Source: Cyanidioschyzon merolae
Taxonomy: Eukaryota
Strand: one strand, 5' to 3'
Length of the DNA stretch: 64,000 bases
Assembly: GCA_000091205.1 (NCBI GenBank)
Contig: AP006495.2
The position numbers and the translations under genes are program-made. Every line of letters begins with the position of its first letter. The first letter of the stretch is position 1. The notes beneath the pieces are model-generated. The model saw nothing but the letters and a program-made list of their open reading frames with translations. It was not told the DNA's origin and ran no database searches. Shown one piece after another: positions 1,164 through 49,497 of this stretch.

Positions 1164-3080
1164 ATGTCGGAAGTGACACTGATGAACGGTGTAAACTCGG
1201 CCCTGGTCGACGAACTGGTTGAAGAACACGTACAAGTACGGAAAGAGTACGGATCGCAACCAAAGTGTACAGTGCTAGAGCGAGTTCGTCAAGCGCTGCA
1301 GCAGGTCGATGTCGATGAACTTTGCCATGGCGAGCTTGCTCGAACCAGAGTTGGCGAGCGAGCTCTTCGTGTTTTCCATAACGAGCCGAATCTTTTGATG
1401 GGTTTACGAAAAGCGGCTCTAGCGGATCTGATACAACGGGAGCAGAAACGCGAGCGTCTTGCAGCGAGCGGGGATATCCAGAACCCGGTGCCGTGGACGA
1501 AAGTGCTCGAGTATTTGCGGCGCCCGACGCTGCTTGAGGAGGCGCTCGAGCTACACCCGGACGCTTTCGGCCACTTTAAGCAGATGCTACGCTTGATTCT
1601 GGATGATGCGGCGGTCGCGCGTACGCTCAGTCAGGAGAAGGATGCGATTGTTGAAAGCGTAACGGAGTTGTATCGTTGTTGCACGCCGATCCAGGTCTGC
1701 TCGCCAACGACGCTTGATGGCGATCATCGAGTGATGAAGGAATCCCTAGGCTATGATTGCATCCCACTGACACGACTTGAGGCTGTTCTCTACTATCTGG
1801 AACGCTATCGGGGGCGTGACTACCACCCAGACCAGGCGGCGGCGGCGGCGGCAGCAGCAGCTGGTGGTGGTGGTGGTGGTGGTGGTGACTCGACCCCGGT
1901 CCGGCGCATCGAGGCTCCACGCAAAGCCGAGCGTGTCGCCCCCGACAGCGACGTCATCAGCAAGGAAGAGAAGAAAGCGCTCCAGATCTGTCACGATGCG
2001 CTGGGAATATCTCAGTACTCTCTGGAATTGCTTCGATCTTATGTGAATGATTGGTGGGAAAGACCTCCCTCTGTCCGAGAGGCCCTGCCTCAGGTAGTTC
2101 TGCTGGAGTCCACGCGAACCGCTTTGCAACCTGAACTCCAGTCCGCGATCAAGACGTATGCACAGGAGCGACTTGGGCTCTTGAAGCGGGTCCGCGCACT
2201 CATCGAGCGTGGCGACTGGGCAGGGGTCGCGGAAATTACGCCCGCACACGATGCGGAACATATATTACCCATGCCGGGGTTACGAATAGAAACGCCCAGG
2301 TCTCCCTGGATTCTGAATTTTGTGCTGCTGTACATTCAGGCGCTACACGAGTTATCACTTGGTGAGTATGTTTCTCGACTTGCCTCGATAGCCCTGAACT
2401 CGCCAATGCTGTGGGCGATGTTTCGGCGCCTCGTAAGATTTCTCGTTCTTGCAGAGTACGAACGGGGCGCTGTGGCGGCCGACTCCGTACCCCGTCAGTG
2501 CCAGGTGCACGAGCGCCTTCCGCAGGACTTGTGCGTTGCCATTGCGAGCGCCGTCTGTTCGAGGGCATTAGGGACGAACTCCCCGCTTCGCACTCGCCTC
2601 GAATCTGATCTAGCCATGCGGCACGAGTGGTTGCAAAAAAGCGCACTGCGCACCGAGGAGCCGCTTTGGCATGAACAATGCTTACTCATTAGTGAAATAG
2701 AGCAGATTAATGTATTAGAAATGCCAATCCTCGATGAGCGACAGCTCTCTGCCGCAATACGCACATCCTATTGCTCCAGACTGGGCTGGTTGCAAGCGCG
2801 CTTAAGTTACCTCCTGAGCGATTCCGAGGCACCAGAACCGCTTCTGGTATCAAATCGCCTCGAGCTGATCCCCGACGACTCGAGAGATCACCAGGGTGCC
2901 CTGCATACGTCCGACTCGGAAACGAGTGCCGACATTGACGAGGAATTAGTTTCCGTGATTATGGAGTTTACTGACGTGACGCGCGCAGGAGCCATCTTCA
3001 TTCTGCAAGAGTACATGCGCCAGAATCCCGGCGGACGCATGTCCAACGCTCAGGAGATCCTCGACCGCCTCTTTCCCTAA
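1164..3080 (+). CDS. Hypothetical protein with a poly-Ala/poly-Gly tract and a C-terminal UBA-like helical domain.
   Basis: Long ORF 1077..3080; the likely start is the ATG at 1164 (MSEVTLMNG). A GCG/GCA/GGT repeat at 1835-1890 encodes AAAAAAAAAGGGGGGGG. The C-terminal segment EFTDVTRAGAIFILQEYMRQNPGGRMSNAQEILDRLF resembles a UBA/CUE-like three-helix module. No family could be assigned from sequence alone. Confidence 0.5.
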   Translation: MSEVTLMNGVNSALVDELVEEHVQVRKEYGSQPKCTVLERVRQALQQVDVDELCHGELARTRVGERALRVFHNEPNLLMGLRKAALADLIQREQKRERLAASGDIQNPVPWTKVLEYLRRPTLLEEALELHPDAFGHFKQMLRLILDDAAVARTLSQEKDAIVESVTELYRCCTPIQVCSPTTLDGDHRVMKESLGYDCIPLTRLEAVLYYLERYRGRDYHPDQAAAAAAAAAGGGGGGGGDSTPVRRIEAPRKAERVAPDSDVISKEEKKALQICHDALGISQYSLELLRSYVNDWWERPPSVREALPQVVLLESTRTALQPELQSAIKTYAQERLGLLKRVRALIERGDWAGVAEITPAHDAEHILPMPGLRIETPRSPWILNFVLLYIQALHELSLGEYVSRLASIALNSPMLWAMFRRLVRFLVLAEYERGAVAADSVPRQCQVHERLPQDLCVAIASAVCSRALGTNSPLRTRLESDLAMRHEWLQKSALRTEEPLWHEQCLLISEIEQINVLEMPILDERQLSAAIRTSYCSRLGWLQARLSYLLSDSEAPEPLLVSNRLELIPDDSRDHQGALHTSDSETSADIDEELVSVIMEFTDVTRAGAIFILQEYMRQNPGGRMSNAQEILDRLFP

Positions 3081-3929
3081 GTCTTCCGAATATATCGCAT
3101 GCTTCAGAGGTACCCGGCATCGCTCGAAATTTCGATTATATCGCCTCTTTCTGAGACGCATTATACCGTTGAAGGTATGTGCGCTGCTGTCCCGGTGCGG
3201 CGCGAGGCGACCGCGTATCCCACGGTGTACGGCGGGTTCTCGCGACGGCGCAACCGCGTCGCGAGAAGATGAACACAGCGGATATGCTGCATATTCTTCC
3301 GGGTATCTGAATGCAACGACCGAGGCGTTTGTATCTGCTATATTTGCTAATACTGCAAATCATCAGCAGAGGCACACAGCATCTGGCTCCATTCCTCGTC
3401 GTTATCGTCGTCGCTGTTGTATTCAGGGCATGCAAGAGTGCAAAGCTTGCTCCGAGCATACATTGACGCCACCGTGCCTGTGTGTGACGAAGCGTCTACA
3501 TCCGATACGAAATTTTCTTCTACATGACGACCTGCTTCTTTTGATAACTGGTTCAGCTCTGGAGAGCTGCGTATGCCTTGAGCTCCTGGATCGGAAGCAC
3601 TGGCGCTTGCTCGAACTCGTTAAAGCGCGCTCGCCGATGCTCGTCAGCGGTGATGATGGTAAAACTTGCCAAGGGATAGCCAATAGTTCCAGATGCTTCC
3701 ATCATAGCTTTCTTGAGCTGAAAGCAACTCGCTATCCGCTGTTGGTTGAATATCCCTGCTGAAGATGCCAAGGCTAGCGCTTTCCGTGGATAGATTCGGA
3801 CGGGAGAGATAGCGGTTTGCAGTCGCAATGCGCTCGGTGAAACCAAGCACTCGGGTATTCGTCGGTTCAGTGCAAGCTCCACTGGCTACTCTATTGTCTG
3901 TCAGCGTGACGGACTCTTTAACTGATATC

Positions 3930-9050: not shown

Positions 9051-9954
9051 GGGTAATTGATACGTTCTGTTACGAGATGTGCACTAGGTTTCCCTGTTGA
9101 ATGCAGAGGTTTCCCAAAACGATGAAACGAGCGCTTGCTTGATTCTTTGCAGCGTCACTTGCAGTTCACGATGTGCTGGTATGCGCGAGAGCGAACGACG
9201 AGCACTTCACGTACTGAGTCACAGACACTGAAAAAGAGGCGCTTCTCAAGAGATATGATTCGGCTTGCAGTCGATCGAGCAGATGAAACCGGTCGTTTTC
9301 GATCTGGATTCAGCTTCGCTCGTAAGTGCACACGAACACTCTCGACGACGAGAAAAAACAACACACGAATGCGGAAATCCCCGCGCGCTAAGTTGAGAAC
9401 GAATAATGAAAACGATTAGCACCCTTCGAAATGGAGTGCGCGCACGACGTGTATATGGTTCCAACGGTACCCAGATACACACACACACACCGATATATCG
9501 TCACGGGAGATCTGCGATCGAGAAGAGCACAGAGCCCAAGCGCTAAATGACGACCTGCTTAGAACGCTACACGCTACAACGAAATGCTAGATGCAGCAGC
9601 TGTGGAGAGCAGAGCGTGCACAGTTCCACACACACACTCACTCACGCGATGTTTAACGACAACAACAATACCTTCTCCGCATGAATTGCTGCAACATAGA
9701 CGGATTCATGCCGTGCAAGCGGTAGCATCACGAATGGGGCCGGCCGGTCCAAAACGTATCCATAGCAGGGCCGGCGTCACCAGTTTGGCCGCGTTGCAGT
9801 GCCGGCTGCGGCCCTGCGTCGGATCCAGCGCTGGGCCAAATGGCGTTACGCGCGATCGCGCGGGTGCGATGCGCAGCGTGCGATCGATCGCGAATGGCAT
9901 GCGCAGCGCCACCCGCGACTGGTGCGCGCAGCGCTGGAGCGGGATGATCATCTT

Positions 9955-10405
9955 TCACCTGAATGGTGTTCCAGTGCAGGTGCGTGTTATCAAATGCTTT
10001 TTCGGCGGTTTACGGCAATGCGTTCCAAGTGCGTTCGTTTTGGAGACATAGATAATCCAAGGGAAAGGTATGGACAGAAAATTCGGGGATCCTGGGTAAT
10101 GTCATCGCCAGTTGCGGGAGAGAAACAAAAAAATCCTGTTCTCCCTAAACACCGAGTGAAGAAGAGCAAGTGGCGAAGAGCTAGAAGAGGCAGAACGGGG
10201 ATCGAAGGATGCGGAAAGGATTTTTCGCCCTCTTTTGGCAGACGGCTACACCAGGCACCCAGTATCCCCGAATTTTCTGTCCATACCTTTCCCTCGGGTT
10301 TCTCTAGTTCTTCGCAGGAACGCACTTCGAATGCGTCTGCCGTAAACCGCGAAAAAGCATTTCATAACGCGCACCTCGGATGAAGCACAGTGCAGATAAA
10401 AGAGT
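9955..10405. mobile_element. Palindromic (MITE-like) element made of two inverted copies of the 5' end of the Fanzor-like family.
   Basis: The left arm 9960-10100 (aatgctttttcggcggtttacggcaatgcgttccaagtgcgttcg...ggaaaggtatggacagaaaattcggggatcctggg) and the right arm 10260-10400 read as reverse complements of each other; each arm is >=140 bp. Both arms match the 5' UTR plus the first codons of element A (15560-15650) and element D (58412-58520). Confidence 0.45.
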
Positions 10406-12320: not shown

Positions 12321-13745
12321 CTAGGGTGCGCGGATGTGCACCAGGCCAGCTCGTATGAGCATGCGAACTTGGTCTAAAGTGCACCCACTCGCCTCCATGA
12401 GTTCACGAGTTCTTCGCCGATTCGACAGTGCCCCACCTGACGAAGCGTCAGCGACCATCTGCTTTGCAAAGGCGACTTGTGCCGCGCTCAGCGACACCGG
12501 CCTATAATCGCGATCGAGGACAAGTTCAGACGGGGCGCCGTACGCGCATTCGCTCCATTCGGGAATGCTGGCAGCGATTTCATCATCCGTGGGCTCTGTC
12601 GAGGGAAACGGGTCGCGCGCTAGGAAGAACTCAAAGTGCGTGATGCGCTCGGGATCGAGAAGTTCCACCAATCTCCACCGCTCCGCGTCGCTGAGCCCCT
12701 GAACAAGCTGACGTACCTCGGGATCGTTCCCCAGCAAGTGGTCTAGATCAAAGTTTCGAGCATTCGACCAGCCCAGGAATCGCAGACCGCTTTTCTCCGC
12801 CAACGCCAAGACGGACGGTACATCGAAGTCGTGTTCCAATGGATGGACATACATATCCGCGAATGTGGCATCGGAGCGGTTGTCGTGTGCCCATCGCTCA
12901 TTCTCTCGTTTCTTTAAGCGATTCTCGTCCGGAAGCGCCCTAAAGAGTGCCCGACCGAGGGCGACTCCCTTTTTATAATCCCCTTTGCTGCCGGTAGCCT
13001 CTTGGATCAGGGCAATCGCTGCCTGCATCCGACGAATTTCCCACCGACCTGCCTCGGCGTAGACGAAAACATGCAGGATGCCACCGGGGGCTAGTTTTCC
13101 CGCCAGCATCTGCAGCGCTCTGGCTGGGTCTGGTGTATGATGAATCACGCCGACACAATTGATCATGTCAAATCGACCGCTTATTTCTCCGTCCTCGAGA
13201 TCGAAAATGGACTTGCAGTACAGGCTGGTGCGATGCCGGGCATCGGGGACCGACAGCTCGAGGCGCTCACGTGCAGTCGCCAGGGCTGTCGGCGACAGGT
13301 CAAAAGCAACCACTTCTGCCTGCGGGTTCAAGTGAACCAGATACTCCGTGCCGCAGCCGGTTCCACAGCCGGCGTCCAGAATACGAACTTTCGTTGTCGC
13401 TGGAACGCGACCCTTGGCACAAAAAGCGTACGCCGTGGGGTAGTGCCAGCGCCAGTTATAGCCTGGTGGAGCCCCGCTCGTAGGCGGATCCGGCGGAAAC
13501 GGGTATGCGTTGTACAGCTTCTGGACAGCCTCTGTAGCGGAATCTAGCTTACGACCCGACTCGCGCTGCTCGAGCGAGGCTACAAGTGTCCAGACTCGAC
13601 TTGGGCGTTGGTGTACTCTGAAAGAAAGGCCTCGTCCGCCGTGAAGCAGCCTACGTAGTCTCGGCTGTGCGAGCGTTTTACCTGCAACAAAACTAGAAAC
13701 GCTCAAGAACGCAGTTGCCTGAGTCTTTTTCGTACCGGTATCCAT
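12321..13745 (-). CDS. Class I SAM-dependent methyltransferase.
   Basis: Glycine-rich SAM-binding motif I in VRILDAGCGTGCGTEYL, followed by the acidic motif II (VVAFDLS) and a conserved downstream fold. The ORF is 12321..13841; the start is placed at the ATG at 13745 (MDTGTKK), since there is no other Met before motif I. The first codons overlap the 3' tail of the adjacent Fanzor-like element. Confidence 0.65.
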   Translation of the reverse strand: MDTGTKKTQATAFLSVSSFVAGKTLAQPRLRRLLHGGRGLSFRVHQRPSRVWTLVASLEQRESGRKLDSATEAVQKLYNAYPFPPDPPTSGAPPGYNWRWHYPTAYAFCAKGRVPATTKVRILDAGCGTGCGTEYLVHLNPQAEVVAFDLSPTALATARERLELSVPDARHRTSLYCKSIFDLEDGEISGRFDMINCVGVIHHTPDPARALQMLAGKLAPGGILHVFVYAEAGRWEIRRMQAAIALIQEATGSKGDYKKGVALGRALFRALPDENRLKKRENERWAHDNRSDATFADMYVHPLEHDFDVPSVLALAEKSGLRFLGWSNARNFDLDHLLGNDPEVRQLVQGLSDAERWRLVELLDPERITHFEFFLARDPFPSTEPTDDEIAASIPEWSECAYGAPSELVLDRDYRPVSLSAAQVAFAKQMVADASSGGALSNRRRTRELMEASGCTLDQVRMLIRAGLVHIRAP

Positions 13746-15655
13746 CCAGGTTGAAACTCTCGCCTGTTGCGGCACAAAACAGCAGGCGTGGTTATCGGAA
13801 CAGAAGGATTTCACGACTAGAGGGTAAATGGATGCTGCCATGCTGACGCCTCACGGTCTTTTTGGGCCGGCCACCTGCTATCGACTTCATCTTCTTCCCG
13901 TAAAATTCCACACTGAGAGGCTGCTCCACAAAGTTGGCTCTCGTCAGCTCTTTGGGTCTCTTCTCCATTACGACACATCTCCGTATAGTGATGGCGGCAT
14001 GAAAGTCTCGGGTCACAGCCTCCATGCGTTTCTTGCCGCCGCTGGTTGTACTCACCAGTGCAGGGTGTCCTCGAACTCATGCCCTCTGTGGCATTTTCTG
14101 TTCCGCCAGCGCTCCGTACTTTTCGATATCCGCAGGGCTCCTGTGAAACTTTTCCATCTCGAACCTCTGAAGCGTACACCTCAGTTCGTGGTGCACATAC
14201 GATGTTCGGAACTCTTATGTATGTATTGTGAAAAAACGGTGTGCATACTCTTTGTACGCTCTTGTCGACGGAGCTGGTGCACATCCTTTTTTATGCGTCA
14301 AGCGCCCTGTTCCGAGTGCTATCACGAGTCGTTGACTCTTGTCCTCCTTGAGGGCGCTCAACTTATTGAACAAGTTGGCGAATGCACGCTGCTTCCCACA
14401 GTCCAAGTCGATACGCTGACGAGCGCACCGGCGCTTGGTGTACTCTTTCCACATCTCCTCGGAATGAGCAACGCGAATTTTCACGGACTCCTGAAAAGCT
14501 TGAAAGCTCGCACCTCGGCTCGTCACATTGCGGAACTCCTTCTTCCTGACATCGTACTCCAGACTGATCTCCCTCGTGATGCCGTAAAGGGCTCTGGAGC
14601 CAATTGTCACCAAGTGCGACTTGATGTTGCGTATGGGAACGACATTGAAGCGCTTCTCTAGTAGGGAAGCGTTCCGTTTCTCCGACTCTTCATTTGCTTC
14701 CACATCCTGCTCCATTGCGGCCTTGCGATCGAGTTGCCGGTTCAGGACCACAAAATAGCACAGCATCAGAGGATAACTTTTCTTAATCTCTGATACCTTT
14801 TCTGCTGGGTTGACCAGCCCCAAGACCGCCCGATGCTCTTAAATAGCCACACGGATCGCAGAAGCTTCATTCGTGCTTCTGCGTGATGTCTTCTTGTCGA
14901 CGAACTCGATCCCCTGTTCGTGCTGGGGATCGTTCATGATGCCATTGATGATGGCCCATGTTCCTTTGCGAGAGAGGCCTGGGTAGAGTGGAAGAATGGA
15001 GCGTATCATGAAACGTTTGAGGTTCACGATCATGTGGTTCTTCAGGCCCATGAGGTACTTGATTGCCCCTCATCCGTAAACGCACAAGTTACCCTTGTAT
15101 CGAGTACTGTTGAAGCGGAATTCGGGGTGATATTCGTGGCGGGCGTGCACTCGCTCATTTCTCCGCGAGGTTTCCCACGTGCTAACCTTCAGGTGGCTGA
15201 TGAAGCTCTAGTCGTAAAATTCTTCCGGAACCTCGACTGTTTTGATGGCCGTCACGTCGCGATACATCTCCCTCGCCAAATGCATTAGTCCTGACGACGC
15301 CTATGTAATACTCTTGGAGTACGAATCGACATGGTTTCTGATAGCGTCTCGCAGCTTTTGCTTGTACGGATTTTTGATATATTTAAGAAGACAGGCTTTC
15401 ACCACAGTCTCGTTGTACTGTGGTCTTTCTTGCAGCCATTGACGTCGGACCTCCTGCCTTCGCTTCTTCGTCTTCTCCAGTCCCTCTCTGCTTGGGACTG
15501 TTTTTCGTTTTTTTCCGCTAGCCGGCGACACGAATCCTCCAGGATCCTCCACTTGCTTCTAGATAAGTATCGTTTTTTATTTTTGAAAACGAACCCACTT
15601 CGAACGCTTCTCCTATAAACCACGAAAAAGCACTCGAATACACTAATGTGAGGGT
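13700..15655 (-). mobile_element. Fanzor/TnpB-like (OMEGA family) transposable element, copy A, near full length (~1.9 kb).
   Basis: The 5' end (plus-strand 15575-15650) is homologous to the 5' ends of copies C, D and the 10 kb palindrome. The 3' tail (ccggtacgaaaaagactcagg...) is a diverged version of the tail shared by B, C and D. The internal ORFs encode an NLS-rich N-terminus and the RuvC-III motif. Confidence 0.5.
13792..15552 (-). pseudogene. Fanzor/TnpB-like RuvC nuclease gene, apparently frameshifted.
   Basis: Colinear minus-strand ORFs: 15301..15552 (MEDPGGFVSPASGKKRKTVPSREGLEKTKKRRQEVRRQ, basic NLS-like), then 14839..15051, 14215..14823 and 13792..14055 (GGKKRMEAVTRDFHAAITIRRC, the D-x-N-A-A-x-N-I RuvC-III signature). 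The 150 bp before the motif is split over three frames, including a Cys/His-containing stretch (RKCHRGHEF) in a third frame. This indicates frameshifts or unrecognised introns. Confidence 0.5.
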
Positions 15656-16663
15656 TGGCACCCTACCGAACTGAAAGACTATACTTTGCTACAACTCGAA
15701 CGCTAGTACATCTTGTACAGCAGAACACCACGCTAATGATCAGGATCGCGTTTTCCTCCATAGGCGGCATTTGCGTCATCTCTCATGCCTGCCAGATATC
15801 GACGTGCATATATCGACGACGCTATAGAAAGAAGGAAAAGAAAAGAACCACGTACTAGCAACTCAATTAGAAATTCTTTCTTTCTGTGCGGTATACATTA
15901 GAAAGGGGAGCAAGCTTTCCGAACACTCGAACGTTTATCTTCTAGGCGGAAGGTTTCTCGAGCCTGACGAGTCTGCCGCGCTCGTGTTTCATGCTCCTCC
16001 TGGTGGCGGGTGCTGTACTGAGCTCCGAGCAGCTGTCCGTAACGCAGGTTATTCTGGGACTTGGAGCCGGTAAGCGGCATCTGGATATCGCCCTAGTCGC
16101 GGTGACCTCTTTGTATATCGCTTCGCGCTGTCGCAGGCCGTACGCTTTTCTACACAGTTTGCTGCCTCCGAGAATGATAGTGCATCCCGAATCCGTATTG
16201 AATGAAGCACGACTCGAGCCTTGACTCTCGGTGGTGTGGCAACGCCTTCTGTCTCTATGCTGCATCCGCACCTGCGGTATGGGTGCCATTGCGGTTGCTC
16301 ACGGCAGGCTCGTCGGTCGATACAACGTTTGAAACGACCACTATATCCGAGAAGAAGTATGACTCATGGAACTTGGTAGCAGGGTGTGTTACAAGCGATG
16401 CTTCATGGCGCTAATGTCAAGCGTACACTCGGCAAAAAACACTGGCCTGTCAACGTTCTATCAATGAAAAATAAAAATCATTCGGTTGTTCGACCTGCGC
16501 AATTCTGCCCGTCTACTCGCGCCCAGCACCAAGCAGCAGCGCACACCACACGCACCTGCTTCGAGCGAGACTTTTACCAGGCCAAAACACTGGTCCGTTC
16601 TCTATGGCGAGTTTATTGGAGCGTGAAGAATTAGAGTGATAGAGACGTGGTACCCGAGCTCAG

Positions 16664-25795: not shown

Positions 25796-26794
25796 TGCGA
25801 CGACTCACGCCGGTGTTCTCTCCAAGGTAAAGGCCCTGGGAGCGCCCTCGTCCCGAAGACCAACTGGACCCGCACCGCTGAACGCACAAGTCGCCGCCTG
25901 AAGAAGGTACCTTGAGGGGCTGCTTTCGAATATCGAGACTGCTTTTGGAATGCGGTGCACAGCAGCTCTATCCAAAGCGGCAACTTTCCACAGTGCCAGC
26001 AGTTCAAGTGTATGTACAGCGCCGTCGACTAAAACAGGCACGGAACGGCGAACGCCCACAGTTCAAATACCGCTTCGGAAATGCAGCTTGGAATCAATTT
26101 TTCGTTGACGAAACGATTACGTTGATCTTGGATCCCAGACTGAACGATGAATTTTGGTATCCTGGTATGCGTTCATCGAGCTATACCCTACCTTCAAGTT
26201 CCATTACTTATACGTTGTTCCGGATGTACCGACTGTTTTGTACGTTCCACTGTGTACCAAGCCCGCCGTGAGCACCCCCAACAGCGATTATACTGCTGGT
26301 GCATATGTATGACGGAGACAGAGCGGCTTTGCCATTCCACTGCGGGCGTCGGATGGAGGAATGCTATGCCTGACACGGAATCAGGGCTAATGGTCATTCT
26401 GGGAACCTGAAATATGCGCAGAGAAACTTACTGCCTGCGGCAGCGCCAAGCGATATGCTAGGAGATAACTGCAACATGGGCGATGCCCAGACGCAGCCTA
26501 CCCGCTCCTAGTCCCAGAATAACCCGCGTTGCGGACGAGTCGCTCAGGTCTCATTACAACATCCGCCACTGGAGGGGACGCGAAGCACGGGCCTGGTAGA
26601 CAAGTTCGGCTCGCGGGACCTTCCGCCTGGGAGATAAGCTTTCGAGAATACGGAAAATTTTTCCCTTTCAAAGGTTACCATGAAGGTGGCACCAGAATGC
26701 TATCGAGTTGCTCGTTAATGGATATTTTCTGTTCTTTTTACACATTTGCAGCTAGTACGTCACGTGTTTCTGTTGTTACCACCACGGATACTTC

Positions 26795-27079: not shown

Positions 27080-27482
27080 CCTCAGGGCATTAGCACGTGC
27101 GTTCATTTAAAGAAATAAAAAATCCAAGCGATGAGCTGCGCTGTACACTGCAGAGGGTCGAGATGCAGAAGGGCCGGCAGAGCGCTCAGTGGATTGAAAA
27201 GTACGCAACGCTGACAGAGCAGAAACTGGCGCAAAGGGCATGAGTTTTAGCAATCCTTGCAATAATGCGTTCTAGTAGAGGCAAGAAGCGCATGGAGTTC
27301 GTGAACCGAACCTTGAACGCCGCCATCAATATCAGACGATTTGCGATGCTGGGGAGAGAAAGCCCAGGAGTTGACGCGAGCCAACGTTGTGGAGCAGCCT
27401 CTCAGGTTCAAAGTATACAAGGAAAATCTATAACCAGTAACATGCGGCCGGTCAAAAAAGGCTAGGAGGCGTCTGTGAGTGG
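27080..27482 (+). mobile_element. Fanzor-like family, copy B: short internally deleted derivative (~0.4 kb).
   Basis: 5' end tagcacgtgcgttca..taaagaaataaaaaatcca is homologous to the D/A/C 5' ends. ORF 27265..27465 encodes GKKRMEFVNRTLNAAINIRR (RuvC-III motif). 3' tail gcagcctctcagg...ccggtcaaaaaaggctaggaggcgtctgtgagtgg. Confidence 0.55.
27385..27482 (+). ncRNA. Candidate omega-RNA scaffold: the conserved 3' tail of copy B.
   Basis: Homologous to 58818-58934 (D) and 48958-49043 (C, minus strand). Contains the conserved hairpin agcct-ctc-aggct/aggtt and the terminal GGCGTCTGTGAGTGG block. Sequence diverges immediately downstream. Confidence 0.3.
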
Positions 27483-27823
27483 TTTCCAGGGTACCCTCTC
27501 GAGCCGATGCCCTCTGCGATATGGCAACGCCGACCTCTGTCCGTGCCATGACCGCACCGGCACTACAGGCGCTATTCCGGACATTCAGGCCATGCACTAC
27601 GCCCGAGGTAGAACGTCTGAAGCGGCCAGTATATCCGGGAAGGGTTAGAAGTTATGGAACTTGGGAGTAGAGCGCGCAATGATGGATGCTTCACTGTGCC
27701 CTGATATCGAGCGCCCAGTCGCAGAACGCTGGTCTAGGTCCAGGTTTCATGGAATTCAAGAATGCAACATTTCACGCCGACTCTGTCGGAAACCGCGCCC
27801 GCGCAATACCTCTTCGATAGCTT

Positions 27824-33700: not shown

Positions 33701-35639
33701 CACGCACATGGAGCGGCGTTCTCCGCATCATCTGTTTTAAGTGTCTGCTGAAACTTGCCGAAATTTGGAGAATATCATACGCAGAGCGCGACTTCTCTTT
33801 TGTGAATCTTCAGCGGCGAGTCCACAGCGCCTTGGAGGTGCACGATATTTGCGGATGATAACCCGGTCTCAATGTTTACCGATCGCCATGTCGTTGCTGC
33901 GAGTGATGCACCCACGAAATGAAAAACTGTCTATGAAGATTAGAGGACCCTGTAGAGGATATCCGTAGGCAAATGTAGGCATCGAGTTCGGTTTGCATGA
34001 GGGCCCTGGAGCGCGCCGCACCTATTGCTTCCTATTCTCGGACTTGATGTCGACGTGCATGAACTGCAAGTGGTGTTCGCAGGAGGCGTCCATTTGCTCC
34101 ATCGGCATCCCAGATACATGCCGCCGTTCCGAGTTCGATACTACGGAGAAGTGATGGGCGTCGACCTCTGCGTTAATCTATTTCGCTTGTTGCAAGTCGT
34201 CTCGCGCGATGTGATAACGAAACTGATGGATTCAGGGCGGTAGGATTATCACCTATCTGTCGTAGACTTGGCGACGAACTGGCATGCAAAGCGACTACTG
34301 CGTGTAACTCGGACACTTCGAACGCGTAAGCGAGGTTTCGGAATCTCTGGGCGGCACTGGCGATCAACCGTACTCCGCCTGACTCGTGTTCTGTACCTCT
34401 CCGGAACAGCATTTCCAGCTTTGTTTCAGTGGCGGCGTTTTCCGGCGATCCGGATCGCGCAATGAGCCGTATGCCGCAGAAAGCCATCCGAGCATGATAC
34501 GATTTTGAACAATAGAGGATCGATGCATTTGTCCGCATCCCACCGAAAGCGCGGAGAATGTCGGTGATCAGGCAAGGATAAACGTGCCTGACACAGGGAG
34601 AAACGCTCTCGGCGAACACTTGTTGGAGTGTTCTCTCTATCTGCCGGACTTGATGCAAGAAAGGAAGTACACGTCCCGCGAGACGATCCATGCGCGCCGC
34701 AGACCGAGGCACAGCGGTCTCGTGAGCGTCTGGCTCAAAGCGCATTCGCCACCCTACCCCAGTCACATTGTAAAGCGTGCAACTGGCGACGTATTGAATT
34801 GGGCAGCATACGGAATGATCGACGCTTTCTCTCTCTATCTCCCTCAAGCATCCATAGAGTCCAGAGAGGTATCCTGCTGAGCGATGACAACGATCATCGC
34901 GCCGTAGTTGTTGCAGTTGCGACGAATACGCCCGCGAGATGCTAAGCCTCATCACTGGTTTCGGGCACGACGCAAACGCTGCGGTGAGCTTGCGGCGCGT
35001 GCACCTCGGCTCTCTCCGAGCGCCGCTGTAACCTATACGTTGTGCCGTCCAAACAAATACGTACGGAGCCCAGCTGCCGATGCCTGTCCACATAGTTGCC
35101 GCTCACCTGAATGCCATCGAAATAGCTCGGAGCACCCGAGCTCAAGTCGAGAGTCGCGCTTGTGTTATGACGCTCGAACCTAGGTACCGCGGGCGCCTGT
35201 AAACCTTGCTTACCCGGGAAACCTCTCATAGACGCTATCGCACAAAAGTGCTTTCAGTCTTCGAACATCTGAGTATTGGCGGAAACCAACGCGCTGTCTC
35301 CTTGGTCCGTCATGTCTCCGTTTCCACGACAGCCTTGATGAGACGAACCCACGATCCATGCGCCATGCGCCGTGAGGAAGTACGCTGAAGCGCGGGCAGG
35401 CTCTTTGAAAGTCACCTGTGCACGCACATACGCACAAAGGCACACAGGCACAGTAGCGTGGATACTGATGCCGCGCGCTTCCGCCGCTATCGATAAGGAG
35501 CGTAGCAGGCGAGTCCTTCCCCCAGTGTCGATGCATGTACGGTGTGGGCTGGTGGTGCTTTCGATGCACAGGGAGCGGCGTGCGCGGAGCCGCTCCAGAA
35601 GCACGTGAGGTAGGCTCGGCACTAGGAATGCCGCTGGAG

Positions 35640-36110
35640 TGTACCGCTATCACGATGGTAATACTTGCCTGGGGCTGGTCGATTCTTGTTGTAGGTCTGG
35701 AGCGAGGCGTGATCGTCATGTCGCTGGACCAAAATGCGATTCCAATGGTAAGACTTGCCTGGGGCTAAACGATTCTCGTTATGTGTCTAGACCGAGGCGT
35801 GATCGTCATGTCGCTGGACCAAAATGCGATTCCAATGGTAAGACTTGCCTGGGGCTAAACGATTCTCGTTATGTGTCTAGACCGAGGCGTGATCGTCATG
35901 TCGCTGGACCAAAATGCGATTCCAATGGTAAGACTTCCCTGGGGCTGGTCGATTCTCGTTATGTGTCTAGACCGAGGCGTGATCGTCATGTCGCTGGACC
36001 AAAATGCGATTCCAATGGTAAGACTTGCCTGGGGCTAAACGATTCTCGTTATGTATACGGAGCGAGGCGTGATCGTCATGTCGCTGGCTTTCGTACCGAT
36101 CACGCATCCA
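35640..36110. repeat. 90-bp minisatellite, about 5.2 units.
   Basis: Unit tgtcgctggaccaaaatgcgattccaatggtaagacttgcctggggctaaacgattctcgttatgtgtctagaccgaggcgtgatcgtca. Full units start at 35719, 35809, 35899 and 35989, with partial units at both ends. It produces artefactual repeat ORFs on both strands. Confidence 0.85.
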
Positions 36111-41847: not shown

Positions 41848-42275
41848 CACCAGCAGCACCATCTCACAACGCATGGACGATGGAAGTATATCTGTCCCAT
41901 GATCACTGCAGCGCAGCAGTGCGCTGTACAAACAGCACCATCTCACAACGCATGGACGATGGAAATATATCTTGACCCATGATCACTGCAGCGTAGCAGT
42001 GCGCTGTACAAACAGCATCGCCAGTGCGATTGGACGATGGAAATATATCTTGACCCATGATCACTGCAGCGTAGCAGTGCGCTGTACAAACAGCATCGCC
42101 AGTGCGATTGGACGATGGAAATATATCTTGACCCATGATCACTGCAGCGTAGCAGTGCGCTGTACAAACAGCACCATCTCACAACGCATGGACGATGGAA
42201 ATATATCTGACCCATGATCACTGCAGCGTAGCAGTGCGCTGTACAAACAGCATCGCCAGTGCGATTTTTTACATC
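41848..42275. repeat. 78-bp minisatellite, about 5.5 units, with two alternating variants of a ~16-bp sub-block.
   Basis: Unit gacgatggaaatatatcttgacccatgatcactgcagcgtagcagtgcgctgtacaaacagca followed by either ccatctcacaacgcatg or tcgccagtgcgattg. Read directly from the sequence. Confidence 0.85.
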
Positions 42276-48216: not shown

Positions 48217-48957
48217 TCACTAGTTTCTGAAAACTGGTACTCCGATAAGGTGAAGTAAGATTGTCGAAGCAGTAACTGTTCATTGCAGGCTTTGCTGCGC
48301 CGCCTCCAGCGCCGATCTGCAACGCTTGTCCAGTGATTTAGAAATGGACGGTCAGCGCGATTTGCTTTGTGTTTCATAGACGCTTACCTTGATCGGGGAT
48401 CCCAGATTGCGGTACGGATGGTACCATTCAGAGATGCGTCCAGCATTTCCATTCCAAGTTCCATAACCCATACTTCTTCTTTGATGTGCTGGTGGTTTTT
48501 TACGTTCTGTCGTGCGCCGAGTGCCTGCCCTGATCGTCCGTGATAGCGCCTGTGCCGCCAGTTTGGATGCATCACAGCGACAGAACCACTTTGCCATACC
48601 GCAGAGGGCGTCGGCTCGGGGCGCGGTTCACTCGCCACAGAATCGAGCCTCAAATTCGATTCGTGCTCAGCCGGTTTGTGGATGCAGACTTGCCTTCGGT
48701 GCACTGCGCGTTGGAGAAATTTGGCTGTTAGGATGTATCCTGGGGGCCGCTTCTCTCTTGCGCGATCGTGTGTGAAATTCGTGTGCGGCTCGCAACACGG
48801 ACTTGTGCTTGGCACCCACCAGTGGGTAGGTGCCCAAAGCGCTGGGCCGACCCGCAATGAACGGTAGTTCAGCGAGAGGCGTTGCGCAAAGGCATGCTCG
48901 CAGCGTCGGCACGCTCAACGCAGCGAAAACGTACCGCTCCAATGAGGTATATGAAGA

Positions 48958-49497
48958 CCCATCAGCAGACGCCTGCCAGCCTTTTCCGACCAGCCGCATG
49001 CTATCGATTTCGGCTTCTCCCTATACATTTCGAGCCTGAGAGGCTACCCCACAGAGGGCGTGCGCGCCAGCTCCCCGGGGCTCCTCTCCGGCGCAGCACA
49101 TCTCCTGATGCTCGTTGCAGCATGAAAGTCTCGGTTCACGAATTCCATTCGTTTATTGCCTCCGTTTGCACTCACCAATGCAAGGAGCACTCGAACTCGT
49201 GCCCTCTGCGCCAATACAACCTCGTCATCGTTCCGTCTCGCAAACACCCTTGCTCGCCTATCTCGCCTTTTCTTCGTCTTCTTCTTCATCGTCGAATGCT
49301 CTACTTTGCTCGATGGTTGGCAAGAGGATAATTTTTTCGTTTGCTTCAAGCATCCGGAAATAACGGCCATCAAGGATCACCCATTTCCACATCCATACCT
49401 TTCCCTTGAATTTTTCGTTTTTTGAAAATGAACGCACTTCGAACGCGTCTGCTATGAGCCTCGACAGAGCATTTGCTGACGCTCGCCCGCTGCGGCT
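48958..49497 (-). mobile_element. Fanzor-like family, copy C: short internally deleted derivative (~0.54 kb).
   Basis: ORF 49044..49373 fuses the N-terminal homology KTKKRRDRRARVFARRNDDEVV (cf. copy A KTKKRRQEVRRQWLQERPQYNETVV) to NKRMEFVNRDFHAATSIRRC (RuvC-III). Plus-strand 49414-49497 is the reverse complement of the family 5' end. The 3' tail (minus strand) tgtggggtagcctctcaggctcg...gaaaaggctggcaggcgtctgctgatggg is ~85% identical to copy D. Confidence 0.55.

Follow-up and report, generated by a model that had tools for sequence, protein, structure and literature searches.

A dead CMe-1A transposon copy precedes a methyltransferase gene of Cyanidioschyzon merolae, whose annotated start codon derives from the transposon and is probably not native

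A stretch of 64,000 nucleotides (nt) of Cyanidioschyzon merolae contig AP006495.2 (assembly GCA_000091205.1), hereafter the window, carries on its minus strand a gene for a class I S-adenosylmethionine (SAM)-dependent methyltransferase, directly preceded by a Fanzor-like transposable element that we call element A. By homology, element A is a copy of the published Fanzor1 transposon CMe-1A that has decayed and undergone an internal deletion. The reading that we favor, with a probability of about 0.6, is that this copy is dead, that the ancestral start of the gene would lie at or about ATG13745 (start codons are named after the position of their first base), and that the start of the public gene model, ATG13841, falls in transposon debris. 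The coordinates of the features are collected in Table 1.

The minus-strand open reading frame (ORF) at 12321-13841 encodes 506 amino acids (aa), with its first methionine (M1) at 13841 and the second, M33 of the peptide MDTGTKK, at 13745. It was 100% identical to BAM81057.1/XP_005537093.1 of C. merolae 10D, and thus the public model begins at ATG13841. An earlier reading of the window made from the letters alone (the sequence-only reading) had stated that no methionine occurs between MDTGTKK and the SAM-binding motif, and we indeed found none before ILDAGCGTGCG. This string is SAM motif I, read directly from the translation, and marks a Rossmann-fold methyltransferase domain. The Pfam families Methyltransf_12, Methyltransf_11, Methyltransf_25, Methyltransf_31 and Methyltransf_23 matched residues 148 to 273 with E values of 6e-20 to 3e-12, while the NCBIfam equivalog matches all fell far below their cut-offs and gave no named enzyme or substrate. 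Among the 1,978 homologues found, the cyanobacterial members have ~398 aa and align from window residue ~100, and the red-algal ones carry an N-terminal extension of 40 to 100 residues that begins M-x1-5-AF and occurs in algae only. The enzyme is, by these comparisons, of the cyanobacterial type, with a predicted N-terminal plastid transit peptide.

CMe-1A has been described as a Fanzor1 element of C. merolae with ~150 copies, ~80% identical to a consensus of ~3 kb (Bao and Jurka 2013, PMC3627910); it lacks terminal inverted repeats, and its target-site duplications could not be determined (PMC3627910). The assignment of element A to Fanzor1 follows from that description. When the 3169-bp consensus (Additional file 2 of PMC3627910) was compared with the window by blastn, consensus positions 91-1949 aligned with 16376-14533 at 80.7% identity, and positions 2400-3091 aligned with 14526-13835 at 78.6%. 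The 5' end of the element extrapolates to 16468, or to 16481 if a common extension, GATTTTTATTTTT, present in 18 other copies, is counted. The Fanzor pseudo-ORF (15552-13792) shares the minus strand with the methyltransferase gene, which bears out the statement of the sequence-only reading that the element adjoins the gene on the same strand.

The pseudo-ORF is interrupted by six in-frame stops (TAG at 15303, TAG at 15210, TGA at 15072, TAA at 14841, TAA at 14217 and TGA at 14079) before its terminal stop, the TAA at 13792-13794. These nonsense codons (two TAG, two TGA and two TAA) were found without a single frameshift across 1.76 kb, and the 450-bp deletion (consensus 1950-2399) also preserves the reading frame. 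The RuvC-I aspartate region 'GADPGNTNI', at consensus ~2190-2225, lay inside the deleted segment and has been lost. The RuvC-III-like motif, RDFHAAITIRRC, is still present: near the C terminus, RMEAVTRDFHAAITIRRC of element A aligns with RMEFVNRDFNAAINIRRC of intact relatives and follows the pattern xRDxNAAxNI in a degenerate form (N to H, N to T). The translated pseudo-ORF was 54 to 65% identical to metagenome Fanzor-like proteins and also matched the published CMe-1 protein. Searches of a local Pfam-A library with the element A protein pieces or with intact relatives gave no matches, although the precomputed tables do list PF26935, and a PDB sequence search with the Fanzor-like protein gave none either. 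With six stops, no start codon, the RuvC-I region deleted and the 3' tail unrecognizable, this copy is, on its sequence, dead; since the RuvC-I region is deleted and the tail unrecognizable, no RNA-guided activity is expected from it.

To place the 3' boundary, ~90 family 3' ends from ~80 metagenome loci carrying the CMe-1A family (loci L004-L083) were aligned. Conservation runs ~86 to 97 nt past a common anchor, GGCGTCTG, and then stops, in agreement with the end of the published consensus, ...GAAAGGCG. In element A, by contrast, homology to the family was detectable only as far as 13835, and element-derived sequence is demonstrable only down to that position by alignment. The conserved noncoding 3' terminus, ...CACCGCTGGCGGCAGCGTTTTTCTTTTGAAAGGCG (consensus 3092-3169, the last 78 nt), was unmatched in element A by blastn, local alignment, nhmmer and a covariance model. 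Local alignment of its tail with the consensus tail scored 19, versus a background of 22.8 +/- 4.5, whereas the tail of copy C, another family member in the window, was detected by the same procedure (p ~0.004) at ~70% identity. Neither nhmmer nor the covariance model found anything in element A beyond ~13835, the covariance model R1 giving marginal matches only, driven by the coding block, and a comparison of the spacer with the tails of ~90 other copies revealed no relative. The tail of element A also folds worse than shuffled sequence (z = +1.8), versus z = -1.5 for the consensus tail. As a separate candidate, the tail was compared with a reverse-complemented 5' fragment of the kind present in copy B, and the score was not significant (41.5 versus a background of 35.5 +/- 8).

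These limits divide the two ATG codons that the sequence-only reading had placed together inside the ORF and conserved tail of the element. ATG13841 does lie inside the pseudo-ORF, in another frame and 47 nt before its stop; ATG13745 lies 47 nt past that stop and 90 nt beyond the last detectable homology. The proposal that the element supplies the start codon accordingly fared in two ways: the ATG13841 of the 506-aa public model is element sequence, and ATG13745 is in no demonstrably conserved tail.

The position of the native start was judged from orthologues. The nearest are those of Cyanidiococcus (locus L003, 70% identity) and of a metagenome relative (L001, 67%), whose loci are syntenic with the window (Aldolase_II, DUF7803, methyltransferase) and contain no Fanzor sequence between DUF7803 and the methyltransferase. 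Both proteins begin M-x4-5-AF and are collinear with the window protein from ~T40, their N termini, MGDCAAFVASTSVGKGFSSARVLCQRHGG and (E)MQTSIAFIGSAFHGKKLW, running parallel to window residues KKTQATAFLSVSSFVAGKTLAQPRLRRLLHGG; GK-x5-R-x5-HGG has exactly the spacing that it has in Cyanidiococcus, and the ATG of the orthologues aligns with window codon 39 (AAG). Because element-free orthologues begin in this way and stay collinear, the native start would be at, or a few codons from, ATG13745. It does not hold, then, that the element supplied the first codons of the methyltransferase, since syntenic loci without it encode a collinear N terminus; orthologues with the same N terminus and no element, which the sequence-only reading had named as evidence to the contrary, were largely found, from ~T40 onward. 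The contribution of the element to the coding start would be at most the seven species-specific residues MDTGTKK.

Several comparisons bear on the 32-codon extension upstream of M33. It is absent from all the models of Cyanidiococcus, Cyanidium, Porphyridium, Chondrus and Gracilariopsis, and the prokaryote-style gene call at L001 has an upstream extension of its own that does not align with that of the window. The methyltransferase frame upstream of M33 is open only from 13853. The position matching ATG13841 is occupied by no ATG in copies B, C or D. Among strain variants, 3 of the 32 extension codons carry nonsynonymous polymorphisms, versus 2 of the 406 mature codons, which makes the extension the most densely polymorphic part. 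At the nucleotide level, blastn homology of the orthologous loci to the window starts only at 13573 or 13532, inside the coding sequence, and an attempt to recover the empty site by aligning the upstream regions of L001 and L003 was given up because these loci are too diverged. Between DUF7803 and the methyltransferase, the metagenome relative has an unrelated 392-aa ORF with an apparent membrane anchor (L001:8074-9252) in place of a transposon; in Cyanidiococcus, this interval is 1,235 nt long and has no called gene.

The CMe-1A copy lies in a once-short divergent intergenic region between DUF7803 and the methyltransferase, in sense orientation to the latter. As far as homology delimits it, element A now occupies nearly the whole space between the two divergent genes: the ATG of DUF7803 (16664) is ~185 to 195 nt from its 5' end, and at most ~90 nt of nonelement sequence precedes the methyltransferase start. 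According to the favored reading, the ACG-to-ATG difference from the consensus at 13841 is probably a C-to-T change that arose during the decay of copy A. By happenstance ATG13841 is in frame with the methyltransferase, across 32 stop-free codons, and the public model would start there by having taken the longest ORF. The ancestral start would be ATG13745 or its immediate vicinity, the extension is most likely untranslated 5' leader or a longest-ORF annotation artifact, and the 506-aa model is probably over-extended.

For its part, the insertion would have cut the methyltransferase off from its former upstream region. Since an element of ~2.6 kb separates the gene from its divergent neighbor, the promoter-proximal DNA must now include the 3' part of the element, and to this extent the suggestion that the element supplies promoter-proximal sequence was upheld. 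Transcription would start in the 89-nt spacer or in the 3' part of the element, or would read through from further inside it; given the family-wide pattern described below, outward transcription from the element is a reasonable idea. A literature search for C. merolae transcription-start data yielded nothing usable. In contigs that carry the 506-aa protein, ends lying 80 to 200 nt upstream of ATG13841 were considered as transcript ends and rejected: they belong to multigene contigs and were therefore read as assembly breaks in a repeat.

Several observations weigh against the favored reading, and the first of them concern the spacer. Its length puts ATG13745 at +97 from the anchor, within the most common range of ATG offsets at intact copies (+92 to +128), and a hairpin in it, CGCCTGCTG/CAACAGGCG, ends in AGGCG at 13761 (+82 from the anchor) and resembles the end of the consensus tail, so that the boundary might move to ~13761. 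On this basis, the 3' tail of element A would be present and collinear with the consensus, only decayed, and would end at ~13761, ~15 nt before ATG13745; the whole 5' untranslated region (UTR) and core promoter of the methyltransferase would then be element-derived, as apparently they are for many intact copies. The 97 nt from the anchor of element A, GGCGTCAG, to the ATG are inside the cluster observed at those copies (92, 100, 103, 103, 105, 121, 124 and 128, with 99 for the metagenome protein P0151), the hairpin ends close to the +86 at which the terminal hairpin of the consensus ends, and there is a weak positional similarity, up to ~+55, to the variant tails of copy D and L007_5926. This evidence is positional, not statistical. 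No method gave a significant result, although the rest of element A is 79% identical to the consensus and the ~70% tail of copy C could be detected, and the unfavorable folding and the lack of relatives among ~90 tails also argue against a surviving tail. A motif common to copies A and B, 'ACAGGCG', was dropped as evidence when the occurrence in copy B was traced to a reverse-complemented 5' fragment. A decayed tail reaching ~13761 is, in our judgment, rather improbable.

The remaining points that weigh against the favored reading concern the start codon itself. The polymorphism argument involves very few sites, and the DNA of 12 strain contigs is invariant across 13700-13900, which leaves the comparison at that level without power. 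The extension stays open in all C. merolae strain contigs (12 of 12 full-length variants); ATG13841 has a good context, with A at -3 and G at +4 (direct reading); it would be the first AUG met by a scanning ribosome if transcription begins upstream of it, as when it initiates inside the element; and the first seven residues from ATG13745, MDTGTKK, have no counterpart in the orthologues. The open extension, the context of ATG13841 and its being met first would be expected if the 506-aa model were correct, with translation from the element-derived ATG13841 and with 32 residues of out-of-frame transposon sequence recruited to the transit peptide. We consider such recruitment unlikely. A run of 36 open codons is expected by chance in ~18% of cases, (61/64)^36, the named red-algal models do without the extension, its residues are the more polymorphic ones in the comparison given above, and the consensus has ACG where copy A in particular has ATG.

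The start at ATG13745 has also been connected with the element through a sequence resemblance. The sequence-only reading had equated atggataccggtacgaaaaagactcagg (13745-13718) with the block ccggtcaaaaaaggctagg that copies B and D carry, and this match was not sustained: in a four-copy alignment, the block CCGGTCAAAAAAGGCTAGG of B and D aligns with element A at 13853-13872, CCGGCCCAAAAAGACCGTGAGG, which encodes GRPKKTVR and falls within the 14526-13835 match to the consensus. The string around ATG13745 is referred to here as the look-alike; if derived from the family, it would represent an additional block of this kind and not the tail of element A itself. In that case ATG13745 and the first dozen codons would come from a second, older CMe-1A 3' fragment, and the family would have supplied the present start codon. 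Within 13748-13711, 23 of 28 core positions match the block, the sixth best result in ~8,500 windows, surpassed by the four true copies and a single further site; when extended over ~112 nt, to the consensus end, the alignment scored 57.5, versus a background of 31.3 +/- 5.9, and the resemblance covers residues that are extra relative to the orthologues. However, the same extended test gave 57.5 and 55.5 in the control locus L003 and 51.5 in L001 (25.5 to 27.5 in the orthologous N-terminal regions); as unrelated control loci score equally or nearly so, the extended look-alike scores no better than chance matches do, and the resemblance is suggestive at most. From G54 the peptide is collinear, with identical spacing, with the Cyanidiococcus transit peptide, and yet the alignment claims those bases; the geometry would also be odd, with the ORF-end block rather than the element terminus adjoining the gene. 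An older fragment is therefore highly improbable.

A true 5' end formed by a spliced exon elsewhere, with neither ATG in use, is scarcely credible: an intron-containing 5' end, the other option of the sequence-only reading, is unnecessary when the N terminus from M33 is collinear with single-exon orthologues, C. merolae is reportedly almost intron-free, with only ~27 introns, and the sole hint, a Logan contig (L086) that departs from the window upstream of 13780 over its first 30 nt, involves a 30-mer that is absent from the window and all loci and is k-1 long for a k=31 assembler, suggesting a graph artifact. Between 13780 and ~12000 that contig (SRR29605848_186795) and the window are identical, and its head, GCGCTCGATTTTCCTCGTCTTGTTGATCGG, is present neither in the window nor in the loci that were fetched. 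Candidate explanations are an assembly-graph artifact, a rearranged strain, a junction with a transgene or the end of a transcript.

The arrangement in the window is shared by other members of the family. Offsets were counted from the GGCGTCTG anchor, and a downstream ORF was scored when it was on the same strand, had at least 150 aa and had its first ATG 60 to 200 nt past the anchor. Such an ORF was found at 21 of 49 unique CMe-1A insertion sites (43%), that is, within ~110 nt of the 3' end of the element, compared with 5.9% of random intergenic points (binomial p ~1e-13). The ATG offsets cluster at +92 to +128, and in several copies just ~9 to 17 nt of nonelement sequence remain between the element and the ATG. 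At ~six sites only, a convergent ORF ended at a comparable distance. The downstream ORFs are ordinary or housekeeping host genes, among them those for ATP synthase beta, FtsZ, an XPD-like helicase, a PPR protein, an HCO3 transporter and a hydrolase. With 43% of sites showing the same arrangement, the abutment in the window is typical of the family and not a one-off.

The bias might reflect target choice, survival bias or promoter donation. We tentatively propose, while regarding it as somewhat doubtful, that CMe-1A elements preferentially sit in sense with their omega-RNA-like 3' end ~10 to 110 nt upstream of host start codons, the family being a mobile donor of promoters and leaders or targeting sites close to start codons, and the methyltransferase locus a decayed example. 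If this were true, the affected genes, including the essential ones for ATP synthase beta and FtsZ, would have to be transcribed from inside the element.

Some further observations concern the proteins and termini of the family. P0151, a Joint Genome Institute metagenome protein of 581 aa, is a prokaryote-style call in which the C-terminal third of a Fanzor protein continues in frame into a methyltransferase; the latter (MTQLNFVP...) differs from that of the window, is of plastid type, and has its methionine 99 nt past the conserved GGRSEKTGRRL. Here, too, the element lies right against a host gene. At the 5' end, the letters immediately before the start of the published consensus (CGATGACAAAACG...) are conserved too, as GATTT(C/G)(C/T)TTT, at 16469-16481 in the window, and conserved 5' junctions were observed in L013, L023, L025, L035-L037, L053, L061, L062, L066, L069, L072, L077 and L080, so CMe-1A is probably ~11 nt longer at this end than its consensus. 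Some subsets of copies extend at the 3' end as GGCG-TTG(A/T)TGGTG or GGCG-TTTGTTTTCAGG. Together these junctions suggest that a few to ~12 nt are missing from either end of the published consensus.

It is a general and well-documented phenomenon that a transposon inserted in a promoter or 5' UTR donates a promoter, a leader or a start codon to the host gene. The methyltransferase locus resembles such cases in that a same-orientation transposon lies directly before the host start, the annotated start is in transposon sequence and the gene has been separated from the DNA that once lay upstream of it; it differs in that translation probably does not begin at the element-derived ATG and that driving of the gene by the element is putative. 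It also has the appearance of a longest-ORF annotation artifact, as the model takes for its start the first in-frame ATG that follows a stop, 32 codons before the position that the orthologues support; here, however, the extra codons are out-of-frame transposon sequence plus spacer, and the ATG is ACG in the transposon consensus.

The 3' end of the family can be compared with the omega-RNA arrangement of TnpB/Fanzor systems, as in the TnpB of IS200/IS605, an arrangement that Fanzor is also said to have. In CMe-1A, too, a conserved noncoding stretch overlaps the 3' end of the ORF and runs to the element terminus, and flanking DNA follows directly after that terminus, where the guide would lie. 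The family tail can be drawn as four hairpins, with 80.7% of cells paired versus 32 to 51% in slid controls. Unlike in the known systems, this drawing has neither covariation support nor an Rfam family: RNAalifold on 34 family tails gave essentially no structure, and an Rfam search gave no matches. In copy A, moreover, the stretch is unrecognizable and the RuvC-I region is deleted. With respect to the published CMe-1A, element A is 79 to 81% identical over ~2.5 kb, encodes the same protein (CMe-1) and likewise lacks terminal inverted repeats; the 450-bp deletion, the six stops and the unrecognizable last 78 nt set it apart. The position of copies relative to host genes is not discussed in the CMe-1A paper (PMC3627910).

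The CMe-1A family is also represented in the window by fragments, namely copies B, C and D together with an inverted pair near 10,000. Copies B and C each have an inverted CMe-1A 5'-region fragment just past the 3' end of the ORF, which gives them a foldback-like or nested look; in copy B the junction with the inverted fragment is ~22 nt past the GGCGTCTG anchor. The inverted pair (9984-10132 and 10221-10362) consists of CMe-1A 5'-region fragments (consensus ~826-969) whose central arms, 10054-10097 and 10257-10300, are 93% complementary, and a possible 3'-tail-like match lies near 9721, just upstream of it. The window also contains two unrelated tandem repeat arrays, at 41849-42265 and 35628-36087, one with a ~78-nt unit repeated five times and the other with a 90-nt period and four overlapping 190-nt copies.

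Table 1. Coordinates, strand and basis of the features of the locus and of related copies in the window
Feature	Position	Strand	Basis or remark
Class I SAM-dependent methyltransferase coding sequence from the probable native start M33, 474 aa	12321..13745	-	Pfam, homologues, N-terminal alignment
Look-alike of the ORF-end block, TGGATGGATACCGGTACGAAAAAGACTCAGGCAACTGC, spanning ATG13745	13711..13748	-	String match noticed in the sequence-only reading
Unique spacer, 89 nt, from the end of element homology to ATG13745	13746..13834	-	Origin: native upstream remnant or tail decayed past recognition
In-frame extension, 32 codons, MAASIYPLVVKSFCSDNHACCFVPQQARVSTW, in public model BAM81057.1/XP_005537093.1	13746..13841	-	
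ATG of the public gene model	13839..13841	-	ACG in consensus: GGCGTCTGCACGTCAG (consensus) versus GGCGTCAGCATGGCAG (element A)
True copy of the conserved ORF-end block in element A, GGTGGCCGGCCCAAAAAGACCGTGAGGCGTCAG (GGRPKKTVRRQ)	13842..13874	-	Alignment with B, C and D; consensus match
Fanzor1 pseudo-ORF, 586 codons, one frame, no ATG start	13792..15552	-	Frame translation
Junction of the 450-bp internal deletion (consensus 1950-2399)	14527..14532	-	Meeting point of the two blastn segments
Element A	13835..16468	-	blastn to CMe-1A consensus; 5' end extrapolated
Divergent neighbor gene, DUF7803, 148 aa	16664..17110	+	ORF list; syntenic, Pfam PF25086 match in L001, L003 and L084
Inverted 5'-region fragment arrangements at copies B and C	26103-26737, 27131-27475, 27498-27691; 48380-48645 with 48965-49475		

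Both the element and the gene were already public, and the locus is ordinary apart from the family-wide habit of preceding host genes. What is new at the locus is that the public start codon comes from the transposon, as its alignment with the consensus indicates, and that the native start is probably another. BAM81057.1 thus probably carries 32 spurious N-terminal residues, which matters for the prediction of plastid targeting and for tagged constructs in this model alga. Judging by the 2013 description, the family-wide position bias has not been reported: in a genome that is very compact and nearly intron-free, its only Fanzor family lies immediately before host genes far more often than expected by chance. 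If transcript data confirm the pattern, it would inform how a eukaryotic RNA-guided-nuclease transposon chooses its insertion sites or survives at them, and would help to judge whether neighboring genes are driven by the 3' end of such elements, which faces outward.

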